Origin: Dehalococcoides mccartyi
GTDB taxonomy: Bacteria > Chloroflexota > Dehalococcoidia > GIF9 > DYGU01
Direction: 5' to 3'
Assembly (NCBI GenBank): GCA_020724525.1
Contig: DYGU01000006.1
Location: 13,210 to 77,209 of the forward strand
DNA length: 64,000 nucleotides
Position 1 is the stretch's first letter; the number at the start of each line of letters is the position of its first letter. The translations under genes were made by a program, and so were the position numbers. This document shows positions 20,024 through 63,412 of this stretch, one piece after another. The notes beneath the pieces are model-generated. The model did no database searches. It was not told where the DNA came from and saw only the letters and a program-made list of their open reading frames with translations.

Positions 20024-20132
20024 GGTTGTTTACCAACGCTTGTCCACCACCCTGAACAAGGCAGAGAAACCCTCACCTACCCTCTCCCTTGAAGGGAGAG
20101 GGATAAGGTGAGGGTGACAAAATAAACACTCT
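20024..20132 (+). repeat. intergenic repeat family A, full copy (~110 bp) with a central 10-bp-stem hairpin
   Basis: The left part is gttgtttaccaacgcttgtccaccaccctgaacaaggcagagaaaccc. The centre is cctctcccttGaagggagagg, a perfect 10+10 palindrome. The right part is ataaggtgagggtgacaaaataaacactctc. Related copies lie at 20766, 26262 (reverse), 34267 (reverse), 4641 and 38270. Confidence 0.7.
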
Positions 20133-20530
20133 CAATAAACCGTTTTTAGCTGTCTTTTGAGTCCTTCCTGGCATTCGCGGCGAGATAGACTGGGAGTCCA
20201 GTTGCGACAGGCTGCCGGTCGGAAAGGATAAATGGTGCGTACGGCCTTTTCCTCCTGGTATTTCAGGAAAACACAGGCGTCACCCTGGCGACGTAAGAGA
20301 TAAGTCCCTGGCTTCAGGGGATATTCCTGGATATATTTCTGGTAGAATTCAAGTACAGGCATATTTAAGGCTCGGGCTATAGTGGCAATTTCACCTTCAT
20401 CAATGGGTGGTTGCCATTTAGTGCAGCAAGTGCCGCAGCAAAGGCAGGGAATAACTTGAGGCTCAATTCCCCCACGCTGCAAATCATATTCTATTTCTTT
20501 CCAGCTTATAGTGCGTAAAATTACTTTCAT
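20132..20530 (-). CDS. YkgJ-family Fe-S/zinc-chelating protein (CxxCxxCC motif)
   Basis: CLCCGTCC...C motif. The start is placed at the internal Met MKVILRT. Confidence 0.55.
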   Translation of the reverse strand: MKVILRTISWKEIEYDLQRGGIEPQVIPCLCCGTCCTKWQPPIDEGEIATIARALNMPVLEFYQKYIQEYPLKPGTYLLRRQGDACVFLKYQEEKAVRTIYPFRPAACRNWTPSLSRRECQEGLKRQLKTVY

Positions 20531-20765: not shown

Positions 20766-20906
20766 GATTACCAATGCTTATCCACCATCCTGGGGGGTCA
20801 CCCTCCCTCTGACTCCCTCCCTTGACGGGAGGGAGTATCATTCCCCCCTACCCTCTCCCTTGAAGGGAGAGGAATAAGGTGAGGATGACAAAATAAAGAC
20901 TCTCAA
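20766..20906 (+). repeat. intergenic repeat family A copy with a duplicated hairpin module
   Basis: ttaccaatgcttatccaccatcctg is followed by ctccctcccttgacgggagggag, a second hairpin. That is followed by ccctctcccttgaagggagaggaataaggtgaggatgacaaaataaagactctc. Confidence 0.7.
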
Positions 20907-25878: not shown

Positions 25879-26163
25879 TTAGCTCTTTTGGCTCATATTT
25901 GAAACAATCCTGGCTGTCTTTTCTGGGATTCTTTCAATCAGCTCGGCAATTTTGGCAGTCCTTTCATCCATTCTTTCAAGCAGTTTTACTACTTCCTGAT
26001 GTCTCAATTCTGCTCTTTCATCCATTTTGGCAATTCTTTCATCCAGGTGTAACATCCTTTCATCCATTTTGGCAATAGCTTGCCTCATCAATTTTCCATT
26101 ATTCCAGGCTAAATAAGCAATCACAATTGAAAGCAAGGTAATAGCAAACCCGAAGATTTCCAT
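25879..26163 (-). CDS. small single-pass membrane protein with coiled-coil repeats (paralog 2 of 4)
   Basis: 94 aa with an N-terminal TM helix (FGFAITLLSIVIAYLAW). It is followed by AKMDER-type repeats (QAIAKMDERMLHLDERIAKMDERAELRHQEVVKLLERMDERTAKIAELIERI). Confidence 0.5.
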   Translation of the reverse strand: MEIFGFAITLLSIVIAYLAWNNGKLMRQAIAKMDERMLHLDERIAKMDERAELRHQEVVKLLERMDERTAKIAELIERIPEKTARIVSNMSQKS

Positions 26164-26737: not shown

Positions 26738-27343
26738 TTATTTGGTGGAACTCACCTCAGCCAGGGCATAATGAGGAGGAAGTATCCCTGTAGGACATAG
26801 AGAGAAGCACTCCCTACACCCAGTGCATTCCTTGCGGGCAATTTTGGGGAAAAACACTACCTCCCGTTGTGTTCCTCTTCCAATGAAACCAATAGCGTGC
26901 TTCTTCTTTATCTCAGCGCAGTAACGCACACATAACCCGCAAAGAATGCAGAAAGTTGGCTCCGTCTCAAACCTTGTTTTTATTTCATATCCTATTACAA
27001 ATTCCCTAATTGTTCGGACGCCAGTTATATCATACCTCATCCCGTACTCCCTTAAGGGTGCGATTCCAGGAGCACGAGCCCACATTAGCTCTAAAAGTAT
27101 CTTACGAATCTTGCTTAATCGATTAGTTTCTGTCTTTACTACAAGCCCATCTTCAGCTGGATAACAGTAAGAAGCTACTAATCGGGAGTGTTGTTCCCGA
27201 ACTATTTCCACAGTGCACAATCGGCACGCACCATAGGGAGCCAATTTTTCATGATGGCAGAGGGTAGGAATGTCAATTCCAACAGTTCGTGCTGCCTCAA
27301 GAAGAGTCATCCCTTCCTTAGCTTTGACTTTTTTTCCTGTCAA
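26738..27343 (-). CDS. 2Fe-2S plus multi-4Fe-4S ferredoxin-domain protein (NuoG/HndC N-terminal-module-like, no catalytic domain)
   Basis: 201 aa. It carries the Cys cluster C-x10-C-x2-C (2Fe-2S), a HxxxC..C His-ligated 4Fe-4S, and the CILCGLCVRYC and CTGCRECFSLCP ferredoxin motifs. It is the last gene of the NuoE/NuoF-like operon. Confidence 0.7.
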   Translation of the reverse strand: MTGKKVKAKEGMTLLEAARTVGIDIPTLCHHEKLAPYGACRLCTVEIVREQHSRLVASYCYPAEDGLVVKTETNRLSKIRKILLELMWARAPGIAPLREYGMRYDITGVRTIREFVIGYEIKTRFETEPTFCILCGLCVRYCAEIKKKHAIGFIGRGTQREVVFFPKIARKECTGCRECFSLCPTGILPPHYALAEVSSTK

Positions 27344-27369
27344 TAATTAAATTGATTGTGCTCATTTTT

Positions 27370-29290
27370 CTACCCTCGCTTTCGTATTACTTGTGTGCCT
27401 AATGGAACTGGCTCAGGTATTTTTGTACTTGGAAGCTTAACTACGGCACCAAAGCGGGGAGGACAAACTTCAAGGCAGGTACCACAGTTGGTACATTTAT
27501 TCTGGTCTATAATATGGACTAAGCTCTTACCACCATTAATAGCCTCCACTGGACAGTCCCGGAAGCAAATAAGGCAAGCCTGGCACTGGCTGGGTTCAAT
27601 ATAGTAGGCTATCAACCCTTTACAAACGCCAGCTGGACAATACTTTTCTCTTATGTGTGCTTCATACTCGTCTCTAAAGTATTTAATTGAAGTCAGCACA
27701 GGATTAGCGGCTGTAGTCCCTAAAGCGCAAAGGGAAGCGTCGGTGAGCACCTCGGCAATCTCTTCCAGTAAACCAATATCTTCTTCTTTCCCTTCTCCCC
27801 GGCGAATCCTATCTAAAACTTTGAGCATCTGGTATATTCCTTCCCGACAGGGGACACACTTACCACAAGACTCCTCGGTAAGAAAATTTAAGAAGTAACG
27901 TGCCGTATCCACCATGCAAGTGTCCTCATCCATTACTATCATCCCACCAGAACCCGTCATGGAGCCGAGTTTGGAGAGTTCATCAAAGTCAACCGGGGTA
28001 TCCAGGAATTGTTCTGGGATTACTCCACCGGAAGGTCCACCTGTTTGAACTGCTTTAAACTTTTTGCCTTCACGAATTCCGCCACCGATTTTGTAAATGA
28101 TATCTCTCAGGGTTATCCCCATCGGCACTTCTACAAGTCCGGTATTATTTACTTTGCCTACAAGTGAGAATATCTTTGTTCCTTTACTTCCCTCGGTGCC
28201 AAGGGACCTAAACCAATCAGCACCGTTGTTAATAATCAGCGGGACATTTGCCCAGGTTTCCACATTATTGAGGTTGGAAGGCTTTTCCCAAATTCCCTTG
28301 ACTTGCAGTGCGGATGTATTTTGGTCTCGGCTCGCCTACTTTTCCTTCTATCGCTGTCATGAGTGCGCTTGATTCACCAGAGACAAAGGCTCCAGCACCC
28401 CGATGAATAGTGACCTTAAAGTTAAAGCCGGAGCCGAGAATATCTTCTCCTAAAAACCCATATTCTTCAGCTTGCTTTAGGGCAATTTCTAAGTTTTCCA
28501 CAGCCAGAGGATACTCTTGCCGCACATAAACGAATCCCTGGTGCGAACCAATAGCATAAGCTCCGATGATTAAGCCCTCAAGCACACTGTGTGGGTTTTC
28601 CTCCATAAGGCCCCGATCCATATAAGCACCAGGGTCTCCTTCATCACAGTTAACAATAACATATTTAGGTTCTCCTGGAGCCTTGCGGCAGGTTTTCCAT
28701 TTCCTTCCGGCAGGGAACCCTCCGCCACCTCTACCCCTAAGGTCCGCCCTGTCCACTTCGGCTAAAACCTCCTCCGGGGTCATCTCAAAGAGGGCTTTGG
28801 TTAATGCCCGATATCCTCCAAGAGCAATGTAGTCCTCTATACTCTTCGGATTAAGTTTAGAATTATTAGCAAAAATAATCTGGGTCTGATATTTATAAAA
28901 GGGGATTTCGTGTTTATAAACTATCTTTTCGCCCGTGGTAGGGTCAATATAAAGCAGTCTGTCACTAACCTCCTCTTTAGCTGTCCTGTCCACGATTTCT
29001 GGTATATCCTCTGGTTTCACATTGCAGTAACCTGTCCCTTTGGGGGAAACTACGACTATCGGTTCTTTTTCACAAAATCCATGGCAGCCAGTGCTCCTAA
29101 AATCTATCTTTTACTCCAAGCCTTTCTTTGTGAGTTCTTCTATAAAAGCAGCGGCAACTTCCTGGCTCCCATAGGCAAGGCAACCAGTGCCACTACAGAG
29201 GGAAATGCAAAGTTTGTTCGGGTCCCTTTTTAATAAAATATCCTTTCTAAATTCTTCAAGCTCTTTTGGTGATGAAAACCGCTTAGTCAC
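27370..29290 (-). pseudogene. NuoF/HymB-like NAD(P)H-binding 51-kDa-type subunit, interrupted by an in-frame TAA and a +1 frameshift
   Basis: Hand translation from GTG 29290 gives a thioredoxin-like 2Fe-2S domain (CISLCSGTGCLAYGS ... TGCHGFCEKEP). An in-frame TAA splits it at 29111..29113. The FMN/NADH domain follows (GRGGGGFPAGRKWK). The reading frame then shifts by +1 near 28285..28300: ...[12 protein letters not shown] is in one frame and [18 protein letters not shown] in the next. It continues to the [10 protein letters not shown] and [12 protein letters not shown] Fe-S motifs. The track shows this as two ORFs, 28265..29020 and 27370..28263. Confidence 0.7.
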
Positions 29291-29767
29291 TTATTCCTCC
29301 TGACCATAGCTTTGGAGAATCTCTCCTACTTTGGAAACCGAGAGTTTGCCGTGATACTTCCTACCCACCACCATCACCGGTCCCAAAGCACAACAACCAA
29401 GACAATTGACGCTTTTCAAACTGAATTTCAGGTCCGGTGTTGTACCACCTGGAGATATGCCAAGAAATTGCTGGGCTCGTTCCAGTATATGCGGCGAACC
29501 ACGAACATGACACGCGGTACCCAAGCAGACAGTAACTTGATGGCGCCCTCGTGGTATCAGGCTAAAAGCTTTGTAGAAGGTAGCTATATGATAAATTTGG
29601 GTCAGAGGAACACTAAGCCTCTCGCTGAAGTGTATTAGAGCATCTTTAGACAACCACCGGTTTTCTCGTTGAACATGGAGGAGCACTTGAATTAGGAACG
29701 CCTTGTCAGCTCCATATTTATTTATAATTTCATCAATTTTGGTAAGCTCTAACACCATTTCCATCAC
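29291..29767 (-). CDS. NuoE/HymA-like thioredoxin-fold 2Fe-2S subunit (24-kDa-type)
   Basis: 158 aa with the CLGTACHVRG...CLGCCALGP Cys pattern of NuoE. It sits directly upstream of the nuoF-like gene. Confidence 0.85.
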   Translation of the reverse strand: MMEMVLELTKIDEIINKYGADKAFLIQVLLHVQRENRWLSKDALIHFSERLSVPLTQIYHIATFYKAFSLIPRGRHQVTVCLGTACHVRGSPHILERAQQFLGISPGGTTPDLKFSLKSVNCLGCCALGPVMVVGRKYHGKLSVSKVGEILQSYGQEE

Positions 29768-29779
29768 CTCTTTAGCTCT

Positions 29780-30766
29780 TTAAAACCCTTTCTGTCCAGT
29801 AACTCCACCACCAGCTTTGCCCCTTTTTTTGGCTAAAGCCTCATGTCTGGCAACTAACTTGGCTTGGCGTTTAGCTAACTTCACCCAAAAAGCATCTTCC
29901 ATCGTTTGACCGAATTCGCAGTTGGCACAGTGGAAAGCTCGGGAGCAGAGACGGTAAGAGATGTCACCTTTAAGAGCATAGCGGCAAAGTCTCTGGTTTC
30001 CGGGCAATGCCTTTAGCCTTTCTAAGGCAGCGGCAATTTCTGGTGACTCACCGGCAGTCTGCATCTGCTGGTCAAATTCGCAGGTAAGACAATCGTAATC
30101 CTTAGTGCATACCCGGTAAGAAACAACACCCATCTTCATCCAGACGCAGGGCTTAGCGACTTCCGTAGCCGTTACTTCAATTGCTGGTGCTGCCGCTTCT
30201 GTTTTTGCCTTCCGGATCCAGACCCTCGCCGCCAGGTTACCTGGTGCCATCTCCAGTATCCTCTCAAATTCCGCTATTGCTGCCGAATAGTCCCCCTCCT
30301 TGAAGAAGTCCTGACCTAAGGACAGGTACGTGGCAATCTCCTCTTCCAGTTTGCTCACTTCATCTTTCTTCTCCTCCATAATCACTTCTGGGGCAGCCAT
30401 TGGCTTAGCTTCAAGGACTTCCCTGATTAGTTGCTCCAGAGACTCAGGGGCAAATGGTTTAACCAGATAATCTATAGCTCCAGCTTTGGCGGCTTCTACC
30501 GCTGTTTCCACAGACGGATAAGCAGTAATAATGATTGCCTTTAAGGTTGGAATTTGCTCTTTAGCTTCCTTTAAGACCTGGATACCGTCTTTGCCAGGAA
30601 GTTTAAGGTCAAGGACGGCAACACCGCACTCCTGTTTTTTAATTATTTCCAGAGCCTGTTCTCCATCCTCAACAGCAACCACTTCCTGCCCCTCACTCGT
30701 TAGCCAGTCTCTTAATGACTCCCTGACGATGGTTTCATCTTCCACTAACAAAATGGGTTTTGTCAT
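29780..30766 (-). CDS. response regulator: REC domain + helical/TPR-like linker + tandem C-x5-C-x2-C Cys-rich output domain
   Basis: The N-terminal REC has the phospho-acceptor context (VLDLKLPGKDG). The C-terminal half contains two repeats: YRVCTKDYDCLTCEFDQQMQ and YRLCSRAFHCANCEFGQTMED. There is no HTH. It is the first gene of the operon with the nuoE/nuoF-like genes, downstream of a sigma-54-type promoter. Confidence 0.7.
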   Translation of the reverse strand: MTKPILLVEDETIVRESLRDWLTSEGQEVVAVEDGEQALEIIKKQECGVAVLDLKLPGKDGIQVLKEAKEQIPTLKAIIITAYPSVETAVEAAKAGAIDYLVKPFAPESLEQLIREVLEAKPMAAPEVIMEEKKDEVSKLEEEIATYLSLGQDFFKEGDYSAAIAEFERILEMAPGNLAARVWIRKAKTEAAAPAIEVTATEVAKPCVWMKMGVVSYRVCTKDYDCLTCEFDQQMQTAGESPEIAAALERLKALPGNQRLCRYALKGDISYRLCSRAFHCANCEFGQTMEDAFWVKLAKRQAKLVARHEALAKKRGKAGGGVTGQKGF

Positions 30767-30805: not shown

Positions 30806-30821
30806 CGCAATTTTCGTGCCA
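30806..30821 (-). promoter_or_regulatory. candidate sigma-54 (-24/-12) promoter TGGCAC-N5-TTGC
   Basis: The minus strand reads TTGGCACGAAAATTGCG. It has GG at -24, GC at -12 and an exact 5-nt spacer. The Cys-rich response regulator start codon lies ~40 nt downstream. rpoN and an NtrC-type activator are encoded immediately upstream. Confidence 0.5.
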
Positions 30822-30924: not shown

Positions 30925-32286
30925 TCATTTGTCTATTTTATTTACAACAAGGTCATGTGTTTTTACCTTGTTATAGAGGGTCATTCGAGTGATGCCTAAT
31001 ATTTTTGCCGCCTGGCTCAGGTTTCCTTTAGTTTGTCTAAGTACACTCAGGATGTGGCTCTTTTCCAATTCTTTGAGGCTCTTGTCACTGCTCACAGGAG
31101 CTAAAGGTAGATTTTGGTAAGCCAGGTCAGCTAAAGTTACCAGGCTATCTTTAGCTAAAATAACAGCTCTTTCAATGGCATTTTCCAATTCTCGGACATT
31201 GCCCGGCCAGTGGTATTTCAGAAGGAATTCTTTAGCTTCGGGGGCAAAGCCAGCTATTTCTTTTTGATTTTCCAGAGAGAACTTTTTTAGAAAGTGCTCC
31301 GCCAGAAGGGGAATATCTTCCCTTCTTTCTCTTAAAGGTGGTAAATCTATAGTTACCACATTCAGCCGATAATAAAGGTCTTCTCGGAATTGACCTTGCG
31401 CCACCGCTTTTTTCAAGTCTTTGTTAGTAGCTGAGATAATACGCACATTTACTTTTATAGGCTCATTGCCACCCACCCGAGTGAATTCTTTTTCCTCAGT
31501 GACTCTCAGTAAATGAACCTGGGTGTTAGGGCTTATGTCTCCTATTTCGTCGAGAAACAAAGTGCCCTTATTAGCATATTCAAACTTACCCTTTTTTTGG
31601 GCAATAGCACCAGTGAAAGAACCTTTTTCGTGCCCAAAAAGCTCACTTCCTAAAAGAGTCTCTGAAAGAGCGGCACAGCTTATGGCAACAAAAGGCTTGT
31701 CCTTGCGGGGACTCAAATTATGGACCGCTCGAGCAATAAGTTCCTTACCACTGCCGCTTTCTCCAGTAATCAAGACAGTAGCGTTGCTCTTAGCTATTAC
31801 CTTCACCATTTCAAAAATTTGTTGCATTCGATTACTTTTGGCGATGATATTTTCAAAACGATAGCGGTCTTCCAGTTTCTGGCGCAAGGAGATATTTTCC
31901 TTTATTAGCTTCTGGTGCTCCACCAATTTTTTGATGACCAATTCTACTCTCTCGGGACAGAAAGGCTTCTCAATATAGTCGTAAGCACCCTCTTTGATAG
32001 CAGCAATAGCTGTAGCTATACTGCCATAAGCGGTAATGATAATTATTGGAATATCAGGTGAGAGTTCCTTTACTCTTTTGGTTAACTCGATTCCGTCCAT
32101 CCCCGGCATTACCAAGTCAGCAATAATAATGTCTGGAGTTTCTCTTTGAGCCAGTTGTAAGGCTTCACTCCCATTAGAAGCCGTGGAGACGCTGTAGCCG
32201 ATGTCTTTCAGCCACTCCCAGAGGGACTCGCGGATACTGGCTTCGTCATCAACGATTAAAATCCTGGCTGTTTCCTTCAATGGCAA
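30925..32286 (-). CDS. sigma-54-dependent transcriptional response regulator (NtrC family: REC + AAA+ + Fis-type HTH)
   Basis: 453 aa. The REC domain has DDEASIRESL...D. The AAA+ domain has Walker A GESGSGKE, the GAFTGA-type motif GSFTGA, and an ESELFGHEKG loop. The C-terminal HTH is QAAKILGITRMTLYNKVK. Confidence 0.85.
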   Translation of the reverse strand: MPLKETARILIVDDEASIRESLWEWLKDIGYSVSTASNGSEALQLAQRETPDIIIADLVMPGMDGIELTKRVKELSPDIPIIIITAYGSIATAIAAIKEGAYDYIEKPFCPERVELVIKKLVEHQKLIKENISLRQKLEDRYRFENIIAKSNRMQQIFEMVKVIAKSNATVLITGESGSGKELIARAVHNLSPRKDKPFVAISCAALSETLLGSELFGHEKGSFTGAIAQKKGKFEYANKGTLFLDEIGDISPNTQVHLLRVTEEKEFTRVGGNEPIKVNVRIISATNKDLKKAVAQGQFREDLYYRLNVVTIDLPPLRERREDIPLLAEHFLKKFSLENQKEIAGFAPEAKEFLLKYHWPGNVRELENAIERAVILAKDSLVTLADLAYQNLPLAPVSSDKSLKELEKSHILSVLRQTKGNLSQAAKILGITRMTLYNKVKTHDLVVNKIDK

Positions 32287-34238
32287 GCCTCCAGATAAAC
32301 AGTGAAAGTGGTTCCCTTACCTACCTCGCTATCAACCTTGATTCTACCCTTGTGCCTTTGGATAATGCCATGCACTACTGCCAGCCCCAAGCCAACCCCT
32401 TTCTCCCTCTCTTTGGTAGTGAAAAAAGGAGTGAACAATCGGCGCCTATTTTCTTTAGGGATACCACAGCCAGTGTCGGCTACATCTACTTTAACCCACT
32501 CTTGCTTCTTGCCACCGACTCCCTCTTCAGATATTATCTCTGTCTGCAAGGTTAATCTCCCCCCTTGAGGCATAGCCTGGACAGCATTAAGGATGAGATT
32601 GGTAAAAACCTGACAGAGCTGGTCAAAATCAGCCGTGACCAGACAGCCCTCACCACGGAATTTCTTAACTATTTCCACATTTTGCAATTGAGCTTGATGG
32701 CTGACCAAAGACAAAGCTTGGTCAATAACTTGGTTAGCATCAACTACTTTCAATCTTGGCTCAGACTGTCGGGCAAAATCGAGCAGATTTCGAATTATTC
32801 CGGAACTGCGGCTGACTTCAGCTTCTATTTTTGATAGATAACTCAAGGCTTCTTCTTTAGGTAATCCATCACCACCTAATCTTTTAGACAGGAGTCGGGC
32901 ATAAACTAAAACCCCAGTTAAGGGATTATTTAGTTCGTGAGCAATAGCTGCGGCTAATTGTCCCAGAGAAGTTAATTTTTCCGCCTGAATAAGCTGTTCC
33001 TGAGTTGCCTTTAGGCGCTTGACGACAAAGGGCCAGCACATTTCATTCTCGGCTAAGCCGCGGTAGATAGCAATAGCTTTTTCCCGGCAGGTTTTATAGC
33101 CGCAGGCACCACAGTTGAGTTCATCCTCGGGCTTGGTCTTGTCGGTCAAACTCAAAACACCTCGGATTTCTTCTTCAGTGGGGTAGGGGAGGGAGATATA
33201 GCGATTGGTAAACCGTCGCCTTAAATTTAGATCGCCATATCTTATTAAGTCTTTTTCCGTCTGCTCTGGGTCGGTTTCTTTCAAGGTGTATTCAGTAATA
33301 ATTTGTTTTTTCTTAAAATAATTTAATTCGCTTCTAATTGACGGACCGCTGACACAACCTTCACACATAAAAAGCTCAGCGAAGTTAACTCTAATGTCCC
33401 CTTTGTCAATCTCGTGAATAATTTCCAGCACCCTTTCGGCACCTTCCCCCACTACAGCCTCTTTATCCAAAGGATCGGTGGAAACTCCGATTGCTTTACA
33501 AAATCCACCAGAAATAGCACATAATCGCCCCAAATTTGGTTTGGGACCGAAAAAGGGAGTCTCCCCTAAACTGGCCGGGTCGATAGCTTTTTGGGCAAGA
33601 AGTTCTTCAAGTTCATCAAAGGTTAAAACAGCGTCAATTACACCACCTACCTTCTCATCATCCCGCTCTGCCCTCTTGGCAACACTGGGGGCGATAAAGA
33701 CCACCTTTGTCTCAGGTGGGTAGTATTTCTTAATCAACCTACCCATAGCAATCATGGGGGGCACAATAGGCGCTAAGTTATCAATTAACTGGGGGTAATA
33801 TTTCTCAATATAATAGACTACAGCCGGACATTGAGCGCTAATAATTGGTTTTTGCTTGCTTGTCTTTATTAGTTTTCGGTATTCCTGAATAATGAGGTCA
33901 GCACCAAAGGCTCCTTCTACTACTTGGTTGAACCCCAGTTCTAAGAGAGCAGTTACCAGTTGCCTTGGGCGGATTTCGGGAAAGGCTACCGGGAAGGAAT
34001 AATCAAGGCAAGCGATAGGTGCCGGGGATTTACTCAGTAAAACCCTTGTCGCTCCGATATCGCTTTCTATTTGCTTGGCTTTCTGGCTACAGACTCGGAC
34101 ACAGTTACCACAAGCAATACACCGTTCCTTCATCACTTCAGCCAAGCCCTCTTCCACTTTAATGGCATTAGCTGGACAGCTACGGATACAAGCATAGCAA
34201 CCCTTGCAATTGTCTTTATTAGTGAAGATGACCGCCAT
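32277..34238 (-). CDS. sensor histidine kinase with N-terminal 2x[4Fe-4S] ferredoxin + degenerate [FeFe]-hydrogenase H-cluster-like domain (HydS-like sensory module)
   Basis: 653 aa. The N-terminus has CKGCYACIRSCP and CIACGNCVRVC ferredoxin motifs. A ~300 aa region follows with hydrogenase-like L1/L2/L3 remnants (SAQCPAVV, IAPSVAKRAE with Cys replaced by Ser, ELFMCEGCVSGP). HisKA (AAAIAHELNNPLT) and HATPase_c (GCGIPKENRRRLFTPFFTTK...GLGL) domains follow. It overlaps the NtrC-type gene by 10 nt. Confidence 0.8.
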   Translation of the reverse strand: MAVIFTNKDNCKGCYACIRSCPANAIKVEEGLAEVMKERCIACGNCVRVCSQKAKQIESDIGATRVLLSKSPAPIACLDYSFPVAFPEIRPRQLVTALLELGFNQVVEGAFGADLIIQEYRKLIKTSKQKPIISAQCPAVVYYIEKYYPQLIDNLAPIVPPMIAMGRLIKKYYPPETKVVFIAPSVAKRAERDDEKVGGVIDAVLTFDELEELLAQKAIDPASLGETPFFGPKPNLGRLCAISGGFCKAIGVSTDPLDKEAVVGEGAERVLEIIHEIDKGDIRVNFAELFMCEGCVSGPSIRSELNYFKKKQIITEYTLKETDPEQTEKDLIRYGDLNLRRRFTNRYISLPYPTEEEIRGVLSLTDKTKPEDELNCGACGYKTCREKAIAIYRGLAENEMCWPFVVKRLKATQEQLIQAEKLTSLGQLAAAIAHELNNPLTGVLVYARLLSKRLGGDGLPKEEALSYLSKIEAEVSRSSGIIRNLLDFARQSEPRLKVVDANQVIDQALSLVSHQAQLQNVEIVKKFRGEGCLVTADFDQLCQVFTNLILNAVQAMPQGGRLTLQTEIISEEGVGGKKQEWVKVDVADTGCGIPKENRRRLFTPFFTTKEREKGVGLGLAVVHGIIQRHKGRIKVDSEVGKGTTFTVYLEACH

Positions 34239-34266: not shown

Positions 34267-34340
34267 GAGAGTGTTTATTTTGTCACCCTCACCTTATTCC
34301 TCTCCCTTCAAGGGAGAGGGTAGGTGAGCGTTTCTCCACT
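34267..34340 (-). repeat. intergenic repeat family A copy (reverse orientation, truncated)
   Basis: gagagtgtttattttgtcaccctcaccttattcctctcccttcaagggagagggtaggtgagcg is the reverse complement of the hairpin core of the 20024 and 20766 copies. It lies between rpoN and the kinase gene. Confidence 0.65.
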
Positions 34341-34345
34341 TAAGA

Positions 34346-35443
34346 TTATTTATTTGTCATTGCCAAGAGTCTCCTTTGTCGTGAGGATGGGATTTTTAGC
34401 TCTTTCCTGAGACTGGCTATAGTACGTCGGGACAGATATACGCCAAATTTCCTCTCCAGACTAACCTTTATTTTCTGGTCACTAAGAGGTTTTGCCTCTT
34501 GTTCAAGAATTTGCTTGAGCAACTCCTTTCGGAACTTCTTAGGGTTTGGGAAAAAGTCTTTAAGTGCTCTTTCGCCCCAGGGAGTTTCAAGACTTTTATT
34601 AGCGATAACTCGGCTGATAGTGCTTGGGGTTAAGCCAATTTTGGATGCCAGTTCCTTTTGACTGAAAGGCAACAACGCTTTTGGGTTGCCCGATTCAAAA
34701 AATGGAGTTTGCTTTTCAACAATGTTCTGTATTACCTGGTGTAAACTATTTTTCCGGCTATTTATTAACTCTAACTTTCGTAAGAGCTGCCTTATCTCTT
34801 TGACTTCGGTATTGTTGAAAACTCCGTCGTGGAGTAACTGTTCCAGCTTCATATAATCAACAACAAATTTACCTCGGGCATAAGCTGGGGAGAAGTAAGC
34901 AACAGATAACCCCTCAGTTCCCCTTTCTATTGCGGCAACTTTGGAATAATGTTTTCCTTTGTCTGAGATAGAAGAAGGGTGGTAGAACTCGGTGGCAATG
35001 GAAAATTCGTCAATAAGACTGTTTATTTTAGACACTTCTGAAACTTCCAGCTGACACTGGTGGGCAATTTCCTCAACAGTAATCCCGGGCTCCGGGTATA
35101 AGAAATATTGTTTGAAATTGTCTATACCCAGATTTCTGATTAGACCAACCAGTTCCTCTTTATTGGCGATCAAAGATTCCACATCAACCGAGCTTGGGGC
35201 GGCGACAATTTCCTCTTTAAGTTCATAAAAACGGCGAGAAAGATTGGCTTTTGGGAATCGTTGATAGTGAATTACCTTCTCTTGTTCCCGGAGGCGCTTA
35301 AATAGTGAGCTCTTTTCTACCCCAAAAATTAAATACTGGAACTCCACTTCCGACATTTCCAGCAAATTGGCCTGCTCTATTCGGAGAAAAAGTTTGAGTT
35401 CTTGTCTTGTTTCCAGAGATTGGGTTATGTTTGGATTTACCAC
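34346..35443 (-). CDS. rpoN: RNA polymerase sigma-54 factor (short form)
   Basis: 365 aa. The C-terminal RpoN box (YLSRRTIASLRKELKIPSSRQRR) and the HTH (ASKIGLTPSTISRVIANKS) are present. The Leu/Gln-rich N-terminal region I is short. The protein is shorter than typical RpoN (450-500 aa). Confidence 0.8.
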   Translation of the reverse strand: MVNPNITQSLETRQELKLFLRIEQANLLEMSEVEFQYLIFGVEKSSLFKRLREQEKVIHYQRFPKANLSRRFYELKEEIVAAPSSVDVESLIANKEELVGLIRNLGIDNFKQYFLYPEPGITVEEIAHQCQLEVSEVSKINSLIDEFSIATEFYHPSSISDKGKHYSKVAAIERGTEGLSVAYFSPAYARGKFVVDYMKLEQLLHDGVFNNTEVKEIRQLLRKLELINSRKNSLHQVIQNIVEKQTPFFESGNPKALLPFSQKELASKIGLTPSTISRVIANKSLETPWGERALKDFFPNPKKFRKELLKQILEQEAKPLSDQKIKVSLERKFGVYLSRRTIASLRKELKIPSSRQRRLLAMTNK

Positions 35444-35514: not shown

Positions 35515-35817
35515 CTATCCCCTCTGCAAGGATCGAGCTATCATCTCCTGACCTTCCTGGAGCCTTGTAAATCCTTCCTTGAGGTGCCTGGCTATTGACT
35601 GTTGCCCCTCACTAATCTCTTTTAGCCCGTCCATAAGCACTTTCTGTCCTTCCCTAATCTCTCTTAGCCCGTCCATAAGCGCTCTTTGCCCGTCAACAAG
35701 CGCTTTTTGCCCGTCCATAAGCAACCTCATATTGCGTCCATTTGCTCTCCAGATATAAGCAAGGATTACACCGAGAAAAGCCAGGGCTGCTCCTATCATT
35801 CCTGTGGCTATTTCCAT
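35515..35817 (-). CDS. small single-pass membrane protein with coiled-coil repeats (paralog 3 of 4)
   Basis: 100 aa with the TM helix MIGAALAFLGVILAYIW. It carries LMDGQ-type decapeptide repeats (LLMDGQKALVDGQRALMDGLREIREGQKVLMDGLKEISEGQQ). Confidence 0.5.
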   Translation of the reverse strand: MEIATGMIGAALAFLGVILAYIWRANGRNMRLLMDGQKALVDGQRALMDGLREIREGQKVLMDGLKEISEGQQSIARHLKEGFTRLQEGQEMIARSLQRG

Positions 35818-36006: not shown

Positions 36007-36408
36007 TTAACCCTTTAAAGGACCAAGGGCTCTCACCTTTTCCGTCATTTCATTTACGACAGAGACAAAGCGGTCACCTTCTGAAGCTGACACCCAGTCC
36101 AATCTCAGTCTTTCCTCTTCAATCCCCATCTGGACTAACATTTTCTTTAGTAATGGTATACGCCGTATAGTCTTATAATTACCTTCGGTATAATGACAAT
36201 CTCCGGGGTGACAACCAAGAGCCAAAACTCCATTAGCACCCAACTAGAAAGCCTTAAGGATAAAGGTAAGCTCCACTCTGCCACTACACATTACTCTTAT
36301 TGTTCTGACATTATGGGCACACTTCATCCTGGCTGTCCCAGCCAGGTCTGCTCCCCGGTAGGAACACCAGTTACACAGGGAACCGATAATCTTAGGTTTA
36401 AAGCTCAT
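36007..36408 (-). pseudogene. MvhD-like hydrogenase/heterodisulfide-reductase-associated Fe-S subunit with an in-frame TAG
   Basis: Hand translation from ATG 36408 gives [54 protein letters not shown]. An in-frame TAG (36244..36246) follows. It then continues LGANGVLALGCHPGDCHYTEGNYKTIRR..., which is the MvhD signature. The track shows only the distal 78 aa. Confidence 0.65.
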
Positions 36409-36431
36409 ACTAATACCCCCCTATTCTAATT

Positions 36432-36790
36432 CCTAAATCTTTTCAATATATGACCTCAGGTCACCCAGATACCCCTCCATTTCGTCGAAGCTTAAAGTGC
36501 CATCGTAGTAACCTTGTATGTGAAAGACATCTCTGAGAAATAAATAATGCCATCTAAGCTCTCTGTCAGCATATTTGAAAACCAAGTATCTTCTCCCCCT
36601 ATCGCCTGAGGTAGCTGCTCTTCTTTGATTCCCTTCTTAATCAAAAGACTATGAGTAGCTTCTATGGTGGAGAACCAACTTTTGGCACAAGCATCCCTTA
36701 AAAGTGTGCCGTCATTTTTCTGTCTTGCCCTGTCAAACTCCTCAAATGCCTTTTCGTAGAGCCTTCTTGCTTCTTTCAGATGATTTTCTG
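36432..36790 (-). pseudogene. small helical (HEPN-like?) gene remnant with a frameshift and no canonical start
   Basis: The minus strand reads ...LSSENHLKEARRLYEKAFEEFDRARQKNDGTLLRDACAKSWFSTIEATHSLLIKKGIKEEQLPQAIGG. It then continues in the +1 frame (RRYLVFKYADRELRWHYLFLRDVFHIQGYYDGTLSFDEMEGYLGDLRSYIEKI). A strong AAGGAGAT Shine-Dalgarno-like sequence lies upstream but no ATG/GTG/TTG start follows. The family assignment is uncertain. Confidence 0.3.
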
Positions 36791-36793
36791 AAC

Positions 36794-37933
36794 TCAGATT
36801 ATCTCCTTAACATCTTTAATTTCAATAACATCAGCTTTATCCATAGTAAGCACGCTGTCATCAAAATTGAGGATACAGTAAGGGTAGGCTGTGGCTAAAA
36901 CTTCAGCTCCAACATCTATTGCCTGCTCTAACCTTATGTCCGAAAATCTTTCACCTTTTTTGGTTTCCTGCCAGATTCTGCCGCCACCACCACAGCAAAG
37001 GCTATTTTCTCGGCTATCCGGCATTTCCAGAAAATCCAGACCTAGAATGCTCTGTAGCAATTGCCGCGGGGTGTCGTATATATTGTTATGCCGCCCTAAG
37101 TAGCACGGGTCATGATAAGCTACCTTTTTCTTAATTTCCTTCCTAAACTTTAATCTTCCTTCTTCAAGTAGTTGCCTCAGGTACTGAGTGTAATGAAGGG
37201 TCTCAAAATTACTGCCAAGCTTAGGGTATTCATTTTTGAAGGTATGATAGCAATGGGGAAAGCTAACCACGACTGTCTTCATACCTTTTCCCCTAAAAGT
37301 AACGATGTTGCTCCTGGCTAACTTCTCAAAAAGCTCTTCATTCCCAGCTTTCCTAACGCTTTCGCCACAGCAGAGCTCTTCCGAGCCTAAAATACCAAAA
37401 TCTACCTCGGCTTTCTTAAAGATGTTAGCTAAAGAATGAGACATTCTTTTTACCTTAGGGTCATAAGCAGACACACAGCACGAAAAATATAAAAGCTCCT
37501 TATCTGGAGAAAACCTTTCTACACCCAAATCTTTCGCCCAATCGGCTCGCCTTTCGGCGGCTTCTCCCATAGGATTGCCCACAGCAGAGATATTTTCCAT
37601 AGTAAGTCTCAGTGAATCAGGCACATAACCTACCCCAAATCCTACTGGAATTCTACGCACAGCCCTCATGACATCTATTATCTCCACCCCTCGGGGACAC
37701 CGTTCAACACAAGCCCGACAGGTGACACAGAGCCACCAGATTTCGTCTTCAAAGTTAACCAGCCCTAATTATGTCTGACGCACCATCCGGCGAACAATGA
37801 AACTTCTCACCTGATTCCAGGGACAAATCCCACTACAGAGACCACATTGATAACACAGTTTAAAAGCTTCACCACCGGCTTCTTTTATGAAATCCAGAGT
37901 TTCTCGAGATGGGCTTACTGCCTGTACAGCCAT
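36794..37933 (-). pseudogene. HdrD/GlcF-like Fe-S oxidoreductase (4Fe-4S ferredoxin + two CCG domains) with an in-frame TAA
   Basis: Hand translation from ATG 37933 gives MAVQAVSPSRETLDFIKEAGGEAFKLCYQCGLCSGICPWNQVRSFIVRRMVRQT. An in-frame TAA (37769..37771) follows, then LGLVNFEDEIWWLCVTCRACVERCPRGVEIIDVMRAVRR... The 297 aa track ORF follows, carrying CCG motifs (FSCCVSAYDPKV, LCCGES, HDPCYLGRHN, LCCGGGG). Confidence 0.65.
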
Positions 37934-41770: not shown

Positions 41771-42524
41771 TTAAATAGTTACCTTGAGTCCGAATAAGTC
41801 TACAGCATTTTTAGTAGTCTGCTGGCTAACAGAAGCTTCGTCAGCTCCCTTTATGGCAGCCACAGCGGTCAAAGTCCTCACAATATTAGCGGGCTGGGAG
41901 GAATACTTTGTCTCCCTACCACAAACAACGGGACAATCTGATTCCGGAAGTAGCCTGTTTAAGGGTACTTCTTTAATGGCTCGGCGGTGCTCCTGGTGGT
42001 ACTCTGCTGCTGGAGTAGCCGAAATAAAGTAGCCAGTGCTGAGAATGTCTTTGAGAACACTGGAGAAGCCGGTAAACCAGTGGAAAACAGCTTTTTCCAC
42101 CCTTGTCTGAGCAGTTACTTCATAGGCGTCCTGCCACGCGTAACGACTATGGATTATCACCGGTTTTTGATAAAGTTTAGCTAAGGTAAGGAGACGGTGA
42201 AAGACTTCCTTCTGGGGTTCTTTAGGGGTGGTTTTAATTACTCTTTTATCATAGTCCAGACCAATTTCACCGATAGCCACAATGTCAAAAATCTTGACTT
42301 CAATAAAGTGGAGATTAGCCTCAATTTAGGAAGGGGTGAAGACCTAAGGAAGGGTAAACAAATTCGGGATAGCTCTGGCAGATTTCCAGGGTTTTCAGAT
42401 TTGACGAGTAATCCGAGCCAACAGCAATAATAGCCACCACACCTATCTCCTTAGCTCTGTCCACAGCTGAAGACAGATTTTCCAGCTCATCCAGGTGAGT
42501 ATGAGTGTCGATAAGGCAATACAA
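41771..42524 (-). pseudogene. tatD: TatD-family metal-dependent hydrolase split by a -1 frameshift
   Basis: The N-terminal part (LYCLIDTHTHLD...LGLHPF) starts at a TTG preceded by AAAGGAAAT. It ends at a TGA. The +1 frame continues IEANLHFIEVKIFDIVAIGEIGLDY... to 41771. The break is at ~42285..42330. The track shows two ORFs, 42321..42581 and 41771..42280. Confidence 0.65.
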
Positions 42525-42614
42525 ATTATTTCCTTTAGGAACCAATGTGCCCGAAGATAGTCTGGCAGATAACGGTCTCAAGCCCCGTTTCTTTCAGAAT
42601 CTGGTGAACCATTT

Positions 42615-44008: not shown

Positions 44009-44694
44009 CTACTCAGCAGGACTCGGGGGCCGGTGGCAGTACTTCCCACTTCCTCCTGAAATCGAAGGATGCCTCCGGGTGTGTAGTAATAGGGCATAAA
44101 CCATTCCGGGGGTGAAGCTTGGGATAATTTTAGTGCTTGAAGCACCTTTTCGTAAATAGTCTGTGGGGTGGTATCGGAAATAGTCGAGGCTGAGCCAGTT
44201 AAGGACTATGATATCGTTCTCTGTTGGGGCATGACGGTTTATCAGGAGATAAAAATAGTATGGCTTTAGCCAGAAGGGCCACACGAGACGACCAGGAGAA
44301 GGCTTCCGCTCTCGGCTCCACTCAATAGCCATGAAGACGAGATAACTATAGTCCTTTGTGAAGATGAAAAGATAATACCCGGGATGTCTGCGAGCAAAGG
44401 ATATAGCAATATGTCGACACGGATAAACAGTTAGTTCTTTTATTTGAACTAAATGGACTTGAGAAGGCGAGGGACTGAGGTAGTGGCTTATAAGCCACCA
44501 AGTCACGATTTATCTCGCCAGGCACGATAGAATTCCAAAGTCGGTAGCCTCATAGCGTACGAGGTTTGTTCTGTATCCCAGTTCGTTCTGAAAAACTGGA
44601 CAAGAGCATCCTTATCTTTGAGACCCAAGGTAATTCGAGTTAATTGCGAGCGATACGCAACCTGCTTACCCATAAATTTCTCTTCGGTGTCCAA
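44009..44694 (-). CDS. hypothetical protein, probably frameshifted (two adjacent ORFs in different frames)
   Basis: ORFs 44503..44694 and 44009..44506 abut in different frames. There is no recognisable domain. The region is Trp/Tyr-rich. Confidence 0.2.
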
Positions 44695-44933
44695 TAAGGT
44701 GAATCAGAAGAAGTTTCAGATCCTGGTTAGTAGAGTAGATGACCCGATAATCCCTGATGCGAAGCTTATAATAACCTTTAAATTCAGCAGAAAGAGGCTT
44801 TGGAGTAATGCTTTCAAAGTTTTCTAAAAGCCATTTTATTTTACCGAAGATGCGTTCCCTCACCGTTGAATCCAGCCTTGTCAGGTCGGCTTCAGCCTCG
44901 GCAAGGAACTCTACCTGGTACCCCGTCACTAGA
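44666..44933 (-). CDS. RelE/ParE-family type II toxin
   Basis: The GTG start gives MTGYQVEFLAEAEADLTRLD...YKLRIRDYRVIYSTNQDLKLLLIHLIGHRREIYG, the classic RelE/ParE C-terminus. The track ORF extends upstream in a basic, low-complexity frame. Confidence 0.7.
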
Positions 44934-45129
44934 CCAGTCCTAACCTTTTGCCGATTTCTGAAGCTGGGATGCCCCTCTCCACTCCTGAGGTCTTCCTGAG
45001 CCTTTCTTTGATTTCTTCCTTTAGCTCCATGCCCCAATCCGGATCCCCCAGAAGTTCCTCAAGCTTTTGTTCAACTATCTGGGTAATAAGGTGCTTAAGT
45101 TCTTCTACCGACATTTCTGAGACTTTCAT
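44929..45129 (-). CDS. putative antitoxin partner of RelE/ParE
   Basis: 66 aa acidic helical protein (MKVSEMSVEELKHLITQIVEQKLEELLGDPDW). It overlaps the toxin start by 5 nt. Confidence 0.5.
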   Translation of the reverse strand: MKVSEMSVEELKHLITQIVEQKLEELLGDPDWGMELKEEIKERLRKTSGVERGIPASEIGKRLGLV

Positions 45130-45869: not shown

Positions 45870-46523
45870 CTCTTGGCAATATAACCTTTAATGTCTTCAG
45901 GCTTTATCATACCCAGTTCGGTGATTCTTCCGGTTATGAGCTGGGGTGGGATTTGGTCAAAGCCGGGTTCTAATTCGGGGGATTTACCCTGGTAGCTCTG
46001 AGTATTTAGTTTAGCTGTTTCACAGAGGCAGTAGACAGGGATGGAAGCCCTTCTGGCGGCTGAGGCGAGGATATAAGTGGGGATGCCGTTAATAATAGAG
46101 CCATCACTGAGGATGCTATCGGCACCAACCAGGACTCTGGTTGTTTGAAGATATGTTTTCCTATATAGTTATCTTCGATGAGTTCAGAGCTGATAGTGTG
46201 CCGGACTAATTCTTCAGTAGTTAATTTGCCGTAGACTATGCCTTGGGAGACCTGGACTGGGCAACAATAACCTGGAATTCTTTACCTTCCTGTTTGGCTA
46301 TCTAGAGAGCCTGGCAGACGGGGGAACTGTAGCTGCAGGTCATTAGAATGTCGGATGGCTGGACAATGCTGGCACCGTGTTGAGCTACTTTCAGATGAGC
46401 TTCTGTTGATGAGTTAATAATCTCTTTGCCTTTAGTCTGGGCGAAGACTTTCAGGGAATTAAGGTCAGGCGACTCTTGGGAATAGGTGATAGCCTTGATT
46501 CTTGTGGTGATTTTGTGGTTCAT
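45870..46523 (-). pseudogene. eIF-2B alpha/beta/delta-family (MtnA/R15P-isomerase paralog) pseudogene, N-terminally truncated with an in-frame TAG and two frameshifts
   Basis: Hand translation gives ...ILMTCSYSSPVCQAL, then a TAG, then IAKQEGKEFQVIVAQSRSPKA. A frame change follows (QGIVYGKLTTEELVRHTISSELIEDNYIGKHIF). Another frame change follows (VLVGADSILSDGSIINGIPTYILASAARRASIPVYCLCETAKL...ITELGMIKPEDI). All conserved eIF-2B-family blocks are present but they fall in three frames. Confidence 0.6.
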
Positions 46524-46530
46524 AAGGTGG

Positions 46531-47526
46531 CTAAATGTGAAATTCGATAATGTCACCGTCCTGGAGGATATGGTCTCTTTTAGCTCTTTGTCCGTCAAAC
46601 TTGCCTGAGCCCCAGACAAGGGCATATTTTAATTTAGCTTTGAAATCCTTATGAATAGCCTCAGCGGCATCTTCAACAACACTGTCTTTCTTTAGAACTA
46701 TGGGCTCGGTTAAGTCTGGTTTCCCGCCGGGGGTTTTAGTATAGACGCGGATAATGTCCAAGGCTTTGTAGACCTCTCTTTTAAACTCTTCCAAGCCAGC
46801 ACCATTTTGGGCAGCAATAGGGATGAGGGGGAATTGCTTCTGATAACGCTCGGTCAGTTTCGTCCAGTTCCGGCTGGAATTGTCCAGGTCGCTTTTATTA
46901 CCTACAATTACGGCTTTTTTCCAGTATCTCACTTGAGACTCGCCATCCTCACTGCCGATAAGCCCTATGCCGAGTTTTCTTAGTTCTCGGGTGACAACTT
47001 CCACCTGAGTAATAGGCTCGAGGCTTAAGTCTATCAGAATAGCGAGAAGGTCAGCATTTCTAAGGAGGTTGGTGAGCCATAAAGGCGGTCCTCGGTCGGT
47101 GATGGGTGGGGTATCAACGAGCTGTATTTGAATATTTTCAAAGTCCATCATTCCGGGATTAGGCATCTTGGTGGTAAAGGGATAGTCAGCTATTTCTGGA
47201 GAGGCTTCGGTGACCGCTGCCAGAAGCTGGGACTTTCCCACATTTGGTAAGCCAATAATTACTATCTGCCCGGCGCCTTCCTTCTTGATATGGTGGATAC
47301 CCCGTCTGCCCGGGGCAGCCTTTTTTTCGGCTTCTTCAGAGAATTTGGCAATTTTTCGCCTGAGTTCGGCACGGAGTTTGTCGGTGCCTTTGTGTTTGGG
47401 CATGATGGCCAGCATTGCCTCTAAGGCTTCGATTTTTTCCTCAGGACTTTTGGCGATTCGGAAGCGCTTTTCGGCTTCAAAATATTGTGGTGGTAGATTT
47501 GCTGGCATAGGTAAATATTTTAGCAC
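46531..47526 (-). CDS. Obg-related GTPase of the DRG/Rbg type with C-terminal TGS domain
   Basis: 331 aa with G1 [11 protein letters not shown]3 DTPP and G4 NKSD. A C-terminal TGS-like segment is present. Confidence 0.75.
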
Positions 47527-48068: not shown

Positions 48069-48169
48069 TGTGGTTGGAGGCGTATTTGGTCACACAAATA
48101 CCATAGCGCCCGAATTTGTGAACATTGACTTTCACCCTGTTATCTGGTAATTTAGCCACAAAGTAAATA

Positions 48170-48333
48170 ATGTTGTTGGGGTGCCCGAGGGTGACTGAGG
48201 GCTTAATTTGGTAGCAAGCCGGTGGGATTCCGGCGCAGTTCCGCTTGCTGTAACAGCCAGAACGCCAGCCCCGATAAACAAGACTGCCTCCGCGGAGTAA
48301 GGGGGTAGAGCTTATTTTTAAAAAGGCTCTTAA
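48170..48333 (+). promoter_or_regulatory. cobalamin (B12) riboswitch
   Basis: ggtgcccgagggtgactgagggcttaatttggtagcaagccggtgggattccggcgcagttccgcttgctgtaacagccagaacgccagcccc carries the conserved GGTGGAATTCC-like loop and GCGCAGTTCCGCTTGCTGTAA. The B12-box AGCCAGAACGCC is present. The region is nearly identical in core to the element at 57160. Confidence 0.75.
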
Positions 48334-56833: not shown

Positions 56834-57159
56834 CTCACACCTCCATTTCCGTTTCCTGCTTCTATCAACCCTTATATCTTTTTAATCTGCTACCTCCAGT
56901 TTAGGAAACTGAATAGGGGCTGTCAAGGCAGTAGCTTTAATAAATTTGTCTACGCACGTTCTCAGGCTCCTTTTGGGCTGAAGTATATTGACTTTAGTAA
57001 TACTCGGTCTTCCCATGGGTAAAAAGGGCATAGATTAAAAAGCTTAATTTGAGGTCTAGCCTTATAAGTTCCCTTAAAGTCAACGCCTGCTTCAACAGGG
57101 CTTGACTTTTTCACTGGTTCTGCTATACTAACCACAAAATAAAATAAATTGTTTAGGTT

Positions 57160-57312
57160 GAGGTGCCCGAGGGCAATCGAGGGCTTAATGGGAAAGCAAG
57201 CTGGTGGAATTCCGGCGCAGTCCCGCTTGCTGTAACAGCCAGAACGCCTGCCTCAACAACAATAACCACCTCCGCGGAGTCAGGGGGCAGGGTTTTTTAG
57301 TTAGCTTCTAAA
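57160..57312 (+). promoter_or_regulatory. cobalamin (B12) riboswitch
   Basis: ggttgaggtgcccgagggcaatcgagggcttaatgggaaagcaagctggtggaattccggcgcagtcccgcttgctgtaacagccagaacgcctgcctcaac has a closed P1 stem (ggttgagg...cctcaac). The AATGGGAA, GGTGGAATTCC and GCAGTCCCGC motifs are present. The B12 box AGCCAGAACGCCTGCC is present. Confidence 0.8.
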
Positions 57313-61814: not shown

Positions 61815-62162
61815 TCAATACTTTGTCTCTTTATTGAGAATTTCTTCAATTTGTGGTATGAGTTCTGGCAATTCTTGTTTAACTTGCCAGATAACATCAT
61901 ATTTAATGCCAAAATAGTGGTGGATTAGTTTATCCCGTAATCCGGCAAGTTCCTTCCACGGAATTTGTGGATATTTCTTTTTTCAATTGGCAGATATGCT
62001 TTTTGTAGCCTCTCCCACAACTTCAAGGTTTCGAATCATAGCATCTTGAGTTTTTCTGTCTTGCATAAACCCCTCATAAGTTAATCCCTCAGTGTAAATA
62101 ATTATTCTCTCTATAGCCTCTTTAATGTCACCAAGGTAGTCTTTGTCTCTTCTTTTAGACAT
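61815..62162 (-). pseudogene. hepT: HepT/DUF86 HEPN-family toxin with an in-frame TGA
   Basis: Hand translation gives MSKRRDKDYLGDIKEAIERIIIYTEGLTYEGFMQDRKTQDAMIRNLEVVGEATKSISAN. A TGA follows at 61983..61985. It then reads KKKYPQIPWKELAGLRDKLIHHYFGIKYDVIWQVKQELPELIPQIEEILNKETKY. This is collinear with the intact paralog at 62627..62974. The ATGTCTAA overlap with the upstream MNT gene is typical. Confidence 0.6.
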
Positions 62163-62508: not shown

Positions 62509-62626
62509 TATAACATGTTGAGGAACTCAAGCAATTTATCGCGGGAGTCGTAGAGCACAAGTTCGGGGAATTTCTCGGACCCCGTGATTTGGGGATATAG
62601 CTAACAGAGGAAATCAAAGGGAGGAC

Positions 62627-63351: not shown

Positions 63352-63412
63352 AGCTATAATCAGTCTGTGGTTTCACTACCTCAGCCTCAAGTCCTTTTTA
63401 CTCAGGAAGAAA

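Follow-up and report, generated by a model that had tools for sequence, protein, structure and literature searches.

Premature stop codons in the mvhD and hdrD-like genes of a Dehalococcoidia-like bacterium probably reflect recent gene decay

An mvhD gene of the FlpD family and an hdrD-like gene lie close together on the minus strand of the 64-kb stretch of DNA analyzed here (contig DYGU01000006.1, positions 13,210 to 77,209; hereafter "the window"), and each is interrupted by one in-frame stop codon. We consider it very probable that both are recently inactivated pseudogenes, the remnants of an Hdr/Mvh-type flavin-based electron-transfer module. The host is an uncultured Chloroflexota/Dehalococcoidia-like bacterium, represented by the NCBI metagenome-assembled genome (MAG) GCA_020725225.1. 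Judging from their sequences, neither gene is predicted to yield a functional protein. In Hdr-Mvh electron-bifurcating complexes, electrons from a hydrogenase or another donor reach HdrA through MvhD, a [2Fe-2S] adaptor subunit, and we know of no role for either MvhD or the HdrD-like protein without HdrA. In the Chloroflexi, Hdr/MvhD modules coupled to various donors have been described (PMC5736913).

The interrupted mvhD and hdrD-like genes

Translation of the two frames revealed a single internal stop in each, TAG in mvhD and TAA in hdrD-like (Table 1). A preliminary description of the sequence had pointed out both stops, had noted that homologs carry sense codons at these positions, and had regarded the two frames as otherwise open; our translations and alignments agree with it down to the exact coordinates. 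With the stop masked as X, residues 7-129 of MvhD align with positions 1-123 of the 123-position Pfam FlpD profile (E 1.3e-50), and the score against PF02662, 171 bits compared with a gathering cut-off of 22.3, makes this a full-length family match. The protein is 87-89% identical to intact 133-aa Dehalococcoidia relatives, its terminal TAA falls at the same residue as in the 133-aa homologs, and it matches PDB chains 8RVU_F and 5ODC_D, as well as 7BKB. It also keeps the Cys residues of LCNWC, VMCSG, and GCHPGDCHY. The window gene therefore shares the full profile and the motif Cys of known MvhD/FlpD proteins (PF02662; 5ODC, 7BKB, 8RVU), but differs from them in being cut by TAG at codon 55 and in having no hdrA upstream and no mvhG/mvhA downstream.

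Masked in the same way, the HdrD-like protein has the domain order expected of a CCG oxidoreductase in which an HdrC-type ferredoxin is fused to HdrB-type CCG domains (PF13183 + PF02754). The N-terminal two-[4Fe-4S] ferredoxin domain (Fer4_8 in Pfam) spans residues 25-83, across the stop, and two CCG domains follow. The protein is 82% identical to an intact 385-aa homolog (P0001) and 65-72% identical to many entries annotated "(Fe-S)-binding protein"; its N-terminus matches PDB HdrC chains and its body matches 9OJN. It resembles this family in length as well as in domain order, but departs from it in five respects: the TAA, a Cys-to-Tyr replacement (C350Y), the in-frame loss of one Gly (GGGGG to GGGG), a C-terminus that is 5-6 residues shorter than in homologs and formerly overlapped, as ATGA, the small gene described below, and the missing hdrA. 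There is no frameshift. Position 350 is Cys in at least 95% of 119 homologs and in PDB 9OJN, and owing to C350Y the protein lacks the complete set of CCG-domain Cys (Cx..CCG..CxxC). We regard this as the most telling change in the gene, as it removes the first Cys of the CxxC in the second CCG motif.

Neither gene is an uninterrupted open reading frame. Gene callers yield fragments of 54 and 78 aa from mvhD and of 54 and 291 aa from hdrD-like, and the N-terminal 54-residue products hold only part of the cluster ligands.

The residues found at the stop positions were read from alignments with 119-120 homologs per protein. The MvhD column contains Q in 75 homologs, E in 36, K in 4, and a few others, and the HdrD-like column contains Q in 112, R in 5, and E in 2. 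In the DNA of the nearest relatives, the mvhD position is CAA in all ten loci, and the hdrD-like position is CAG or CAA in seven of eight, the remaining one (L014) having CGG (Arg). Each stop thus goes back to a Gln codon whose first position changed from C to T, which bears out the ancestral CAA/CAG codons proposed in the preliminary description; the TAG of mvhD requires an additional third-position transition.

The partners with which the two genes are normally associated are missing. In Dehalococcoidia and Desulfobacterota MAGs, the hdrD-like gene precedes hdrA-mvhD-mvhGA, and the order in several relatives (L010, L105-L110, L121) is hdrD-like-hdrA-mvhD-mvhG-mvhA-hycI. In two others (L003, L097), an hdrA-fusion-hdrC-hdrB-mvhD set is followed by genes for a sigma54 DNA-binding-domain (DBD) protein, a hydrogenase-like sensor kinase, and an NtrC-type activator, and the same three regulators flank mvhD in the window. 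Wherever the contigs of related loci reach upstream, mvhD follows hdrA or an hdrA-hdrC-hdrB set. No match to HdrA, MvhG, or MvhA was found anywhere in the 64-kb window, so that the window mvhD lacks its usual genomic association with hdrA, mvhG, and mvhA.

The place of hdrA is taken by a pseudogene for a small helical protein of the PaREP1/DUF5618 family, which at 377 bp fills the whole of the 385-bp gap between hdrD-like and mvhD; no remnants of hdrA were found in that gap. The preliminary description had noticed that this small gene is frameshifted and without a start codon. Both defects are present, as a change of ATG to CTG at 36795-36797 and a 1-nt deletion near 36603, and to them we add a TAG at 36433-36435 that cuts the frame short where homologs almost always have Glu. 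A reconstruction joining the two frames, used as query, matched 12 homologs (P0241-P0252) of 124-150 aa at 59-69% identity and with 98-100% coverage across the frameshift. No counterpart of the gene was found in 175 related loci. Its original start codon and the TGA stop of hdrD formed an overlapping ATGA.

This overlap, together with the shortening of the HdrD-like protein by 5-6 residues, suggests that hdrA was removed first, by deletion or insertion. We infer the following order of events. The deletion or insertion would have removed hdrA, and a PaREP1-like gene would have been gained in its place. Left without their flavoprotein partner, the HdrD-like protein and MvhD would have come under relaxed selection. 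Transition-biased point mutation (C>T at CAA/CAG) would then have made the stops, alongside damaging changes such as C350Y, and the orphaned subunits would be decaying neutrally, in parallel with the adjacent NuoE/NuoF/Fe-S module.

The substitutions in the two genes were compared with those of their homologs at alignment columns with at least 95% conservation. MvhD deviates at five such columns (F10S, P32H, P47L, D59N, V63A), where the other sequences do so at 0.57 on average and at 4 at most. The HdrD-like protein deviates at 11, C350Y among them, against a mean of 2.0, and is tied with P0004, a member of its own divergent subclade. Relative-rate counts against outgroups gave 8-9 window-specific and 1-5 relative-specific changes for MvhD (p 0.02-0.4), and 10 against 2 at deeply conserved sites of the HdrD-like protein (p 0.04). 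Among 19 lineage-specific replacements, derived by hand from the relative-rate lists, 16 are transitions and 11 are GC>AT. These patterns are signs of relaxed constraint, with a modest excess at conserved sites. The dN/dS (ratio of nonsynonymous to synonymous substitution rates) of mvhD and hdrD-like to their nearest relatives is 0.05-0.11; these values are pairwise rather than branch-specific, and dS to most relatives is saturated. Such low values indicate that the genes were constrained for most of their history and that inactivation was recent, which is also why the frames still look conserved from end to end.

Several observations weigh against decay. Apart from the one stop each, both frames are open and well conserved, so that any decay must be recent. 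Statistical support for an excess of damaging substitutions is marginal (p ~0.02-0.4), and members of the divergent HdrD-like subclade score similarly in the conserved-column comparison. Moreover, both stops fall on Gln, although MvhD contains only two Gln codons; the joint probability of this is 0.3-2% under unbiased or mildly biased mutation, and the strongly transition-biased spectrum of this lineage raises it to 5-7%. The remaining two in-frame stops of the block are at non-Gln positions, in genes that also carry frameshifts. Given this, and the 5-7% obtained with the biased spectrum, we treat the coincidence as unremarkable.

We nevertheless find in the two genes what is found in ordinary pseudogenes: clustered independent lesions in linked genes, a deleted partner, transition bias, and intact essential genes nearby. 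Nothing material sets them apart, the placement of both nonsense codons on Gln being a mild oddity. The mutations are disabling by comparison with intact orthologs and are reproduced in several assemblies, the lesions are linked, and the partners have been lost. At least eight independent disabling lesions are spread over the hdrD-like, PaREP1-like, mvhD, nuoF-like, and Fe-S subunit genes. These lesions, the missing hdrA and mvhGA, and the intact regulators support the suggestion, made in the preliminary description, that this lineage has had its module shut down. The case is one of ordinary pseudogenization in a MAG.

Table 1. Genes and codons of the mvhD/hdrD-like region and its surroundings in the window
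Feature	Position	Strand	Remarks
mvhD (FlpD family) pseudogene	36007..36408	-	133 codons; Pfam FlpD, intact 133-aa relatives, PDB MvhD chains
In-frame TAG, codon 55 of mvhD	36244..36246	-	Gln (CAA) in relatives; TTG directly after
hdrD-like pseudogene (2x[4Fe-4S] ferredoxin and two CCG domains)	36794..37933	-	379 codons
In-frame TAA, codon 55 of hdrD-like	37769..37771	-	Between two CxxCxxCxxxCP motifs; Gln (CAG/CAA) in relatives
TAC (Tyr), C350Y, in hdrD-like	36884..36886	-	First Cys of C-terminal CxxC, second CCG motif
PaREP1/DUF5618-family small helical gene, pseudogene	36421..36797	-	Three-frame translation and full-length homologs
nuoF/hydB-like flavoprotein pseudogene	27370..29290	-	tblastn with intact 616-aa L014 homolog: two frames, across stop
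2Fe-2S/4Fe-4S subunit gene (NuoG/HydA N-terminal type)	26738..27365	-	Downstream of nuoF-like; 1-nt insertion
nuoE/hydC-like 2Fe-2S subunit, intact	29291..29767	-	Pfam 2Fe-2S_thioredx 1-144/145
Response regulator, intact	29780-30766	-	Pfam
NtrC-type sigma54 activator, intact	30925-32286	-	Pfam
[FeFe]-hydrogenase-like sensor histidine kinase, intact	32277-34238	-	Pfam
sigma54-DBD-only protein, intact	34346-35443	-	Pfam

Decoding, gene splitting, and assembly error as alternatives

The preliminary description had left room for the stops being recoded. A suppressor tRNA or a change in the genetic code might decode them as Gln, or leaky near-cognate readthrough by tRNA-Gln might yield a low level of full-length protein; we think this very unlikely. 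What speaks for it is that both stops replace a conserved Gln, a coincidence that is improbable under unbiased mutation, and that the remainder of each frame is open and conserved. The stops could even act as a leaky switch, in which a near-cognate tRNA-Gln, or an unrecognized suppressor, would restore the ancestral Gln and give low, possibly condition-dependent amounts of MvhD and HdrD-like protein under control of the intact H2-sensing sigma54 cascade. The conserved-Gln stops and the preserved frames leave some room for this version, which we likewise think very unlikely. The Gln coincidence is the sole observation that keeps a small probability for leaky, Gln-restoring readthrough.

The use of stop codons in the window argues against decoding. 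Among 56 called genes, a count that includes the fragment calls ending at premature stops and covers secY, adk, and rpoA, 29 end in TAA, 17 in TAG, and 10 in TGA. TAA and TAG thus terminate 46 of the 56, ribosomal protein genes and mvhD itself among them. Both codons are normal terminators, and the intact housekeeping genes have no internal stops, which is not what would be expected if TAA and TAG had been reassigned to Gln; we reject genome-wide recoding on the basis of this usage. No tRNA gene, and hence no suppressor tRNA of the kind that the preliminary description had proposed to look for, was found in the window and ~7.5 kb of contig past its right end (~71 kb scanned). The base after each stop is T (TAGT, TAAT), and a stop codon followed by T is a strong, efficient termination context in bacteria. 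As for the other two stops of the block, the one in PaREP1-like replaces a conserved Glu, the one in nuoF-like lies where the residue varies and is not Gln, and both genes are frameshifted. Even if the stops were read through, the HdrD-like protein would be without one cluster-ligand Cys, and HdrA is absent from the window.

Further evidence came from translating all retrieved loci with a match to MvhD (166) or to the HdrD-like protein (118). TAG at MvhD Gln55 and TAA at HdrD Gln55 are confined to the window and to copies identical with it. Other in-frame stops are nearly always TGA at positions aligned with Cys, the pattern of selenocysteine: in MvhD at Cys15 (21 loci), Cys66 (35 loci), and Cys41 (1 locus), and in HdrD-like proteins at Cys353 (1 locus). 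Examples are L105-L110, L120-L156 (in an MvhD paralog upstream of hdrD-like), L044-L095, and L054. This pattern is as would be expected for selenocysteine-containing MvhD/Hdr proteins of Dehalococcoidia and Desulfobacterota MAGs. The isolated exceptions, TAG at Met90 in L024 and TGA at Pro289 in L082, seem to be pseudogenes as well.

The window genes resemble the selenocysteine members of the MvhD/HdrA families in having an in-frame stop within mvhD/hdr genes, but in one lineage only they have TAG and TAA where the alignment has Gln, whereas the stops of the relatives are TGA at Cys. Selenocysteine and pyrrolysine are rejected, as neither the codons nor the aligned Gln fit. A general caution for annotation follows from these families: in-frame stops in MvhD/Hdr genes invite a reading as recoding, and the relatives do appear truly to use TGA-selenocysteine there. 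For the window, the identity of the codons, the aligned Gln, the normal use of both terminators, and the surrounding frameshifts point to plain gene decay instead.

A second alternative, about as improbable as decoding, is that the genes have been split, with the two halves translated separately (in mvhD by termination-reinitiation) and assembling into a functional protein. The TAG of mvhD is directly followed by a TTG that opens the 78-aa downstream frame, with a weak AAGG 8 nt upstream of the TTG, and HdrC and HdrB are encoded by separate genes in relatives. However, both breaks lie within single Pfam domains, away from the HdrC/HdrB boundary, and neither is therefore a natural domain boundary, an outcome that would have counted against the preliminary description. 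In hdrD-like, the next possible starts (GTG 37687/ATG 37669) are past the second CxxCxxCxxxCP motif, so that the cluster would be lost. No related locus has such a split, and HdrA is again absent. We reject a natural boundary or split gene on the basis of the Pfam coordinates and the positions of the next start codons.

Whether the stops are real can be judged from public assemblies. JGI metagenome contig Ga0246236_1000096 matches the window at 100% identity over 20.9 kb, as does a Logan contig of SRR5011275, recorded in 4 samples, over 2.4 kb, and gene callers likewise give fragments of 54+291 aa and 54+78 aa on these contigs. GenBank metagenome contig QZGF01002859.1 shares the mvhD TAG, and a single synonymous single-nucleotide polymorphism (SNP), at 36379, sets it apart from the window. 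Gene fragments on record from NCBI MAG GCA_020725225.1 (contig DYFN01000003.1) include the same mvhD fragment. Within our collection of loci, the mvhD TAG is also present in L096, L002, and L001, and the hdrD-like TAA in L001 and L002; the latter stop is covered only by the JGI assembly and the Logan contig. An intact sister strain was sought and none was found, the nearest intact HdrD-like and MvhD proteins being 82% and 87-89% identical, respectively. The occurrence of the same stops in several public assemblies excludes sequencing error and artificial alteration as far as assemblies can show.

The least probable alternative is that the stops arose during sequencing or assembly, or that the assembler settled on minority alleles, and that the genes are in truth unbroken. 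In its favor, the contig was assembled from a metagenome and is known here from assemblies rather than reads, and two neighboring lesions are single A insertions in or next to A runs. Against it, the identical stops recur in the JGI, Logan, and SNP-distinguished GenBank contigs and the mvhD fragment in the NCBI MAG, the lesions at both stops are substitutions and not homopolymer indels, the mvhD TAG is two positions away from the CAA of relatives, and no errors are seen in the housekeeping genes of the contig.

Neighboring genes and other features of the window

Lesions of the same kind are found in a second redox module nearby. The nuoF-like gene carries a TAA (29111-29113), at the variable position mentioned above, and a 1-nt insertion (A) at ~28294. 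In the Fe-S subunit gene next to it, a 1-nt insertion follows codon 9 (~27338), and homolog N-termini MSEILLQIDGKEVKAEEGMT match the joined frames. The preliminary description had counted three premature stops, those of NuoF included. The stops and the NuoF lesions are real, but the tally was too low, because the Fe-S subunit gene and tatD (41771-42581, minus strand; one lesion) are frameshifted as well. More remnants are a 107-aa IF-2B/MtnA-family fragment at 46302-46625 (minus strand), a 59-aa HepT fragment (L176 13611-13790), and a 127-aa NMO fragment (L176 18381-18764). The accessory part of the contig is generally pseudogene-rich.

In agreement with the preliminary description, the surrounding regulators are intact. 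They are full length and syntenic with those of L003 and L097, at 61-78% identity, and dN/dS is 0.03-0.05 for the sensor kinase and the NtrC-type activator, the two pairs with estimable dS. In the sensor kinase, a HisKA/HATPase histidine kinase is fused to a domain resembling the large subunit of [FeFe]-hydrogenase. A sigma54-type -24/-12 box (TGGCACGAAAATTGCG) is located at 30806-30821 (minus strand), 40 nt upstream of the response-regulator/nuoE operon. This site has one mismatch, and the overall count of boxes in the search was not above chance; no box was found upstream of hdrD-like. The intact regulators may control other targets.

The window would thus record one Dehalococcoidia-like lineage that is losing both Hdr/Mvh-type and NuoEF-type redox modules, whilst retaining beside them a hydrogenase-like sensor kinase, a sigma54 activator, and response regulators. 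Metabolic reconstructions of the MAG should not count Hdr/Mvh-type or NuoEF-type complexes.

Elsewhere, 29 housekeeping genes at 1-22 kb are intact and full length, as are the cobamide-salvage genes at 48-56 kb (48-58 kb with the btu genes included). The salvage set comprises cbiB, cobD, cobQ, cobT, cobS, and cobU, and is typical of corrinoid-scavenging Dehalococcoidia. Cobalamin riboswitches at 48163-48287 and 57144-57269 (both plus strand) precede the intact btuC/D-cobamide salvage genes and btuF-like; these two were the only hits of an Rfam scan, which gave none in the mvhD/hdrD-like region. An intergenic repeat of 60-70 nt with a perfect hairpin (CCCTCTCCCTTGAAGGGAGAGGG) is present at 20076-20135, at 20847-20906, and, inverted, at ~34267-34336 between the sigma54-DBD and sensor-kinase genes, the copies being 95-97% identical.

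Two small proteins, encoded at 35515-35817 and 25879-26163 (both minus strand), combine an N-terminal hydrophobic segment with heptad tandem repeats. Those of the first are of the LMDGQKA type, encoded by five 21-nt DNA repeats, and the protein has no Pfam match; its gene occupies the site of a cNMP-binding protein gene in relatives. Those of the second are of the MDERxAK type. Finally, toxin-antitoxin-type genes are located at 62155-63916 (minus strand) and at L176 13611-15728, with two HepT/MNT pairs and a PIN/MazE-antitoxin, and a further one, ParE, is at 44666-45037. In broad terms, the PaREP1/DUF5618 pseudogene can be grouped with the genes of this cluster as a small, helical accessory gene.

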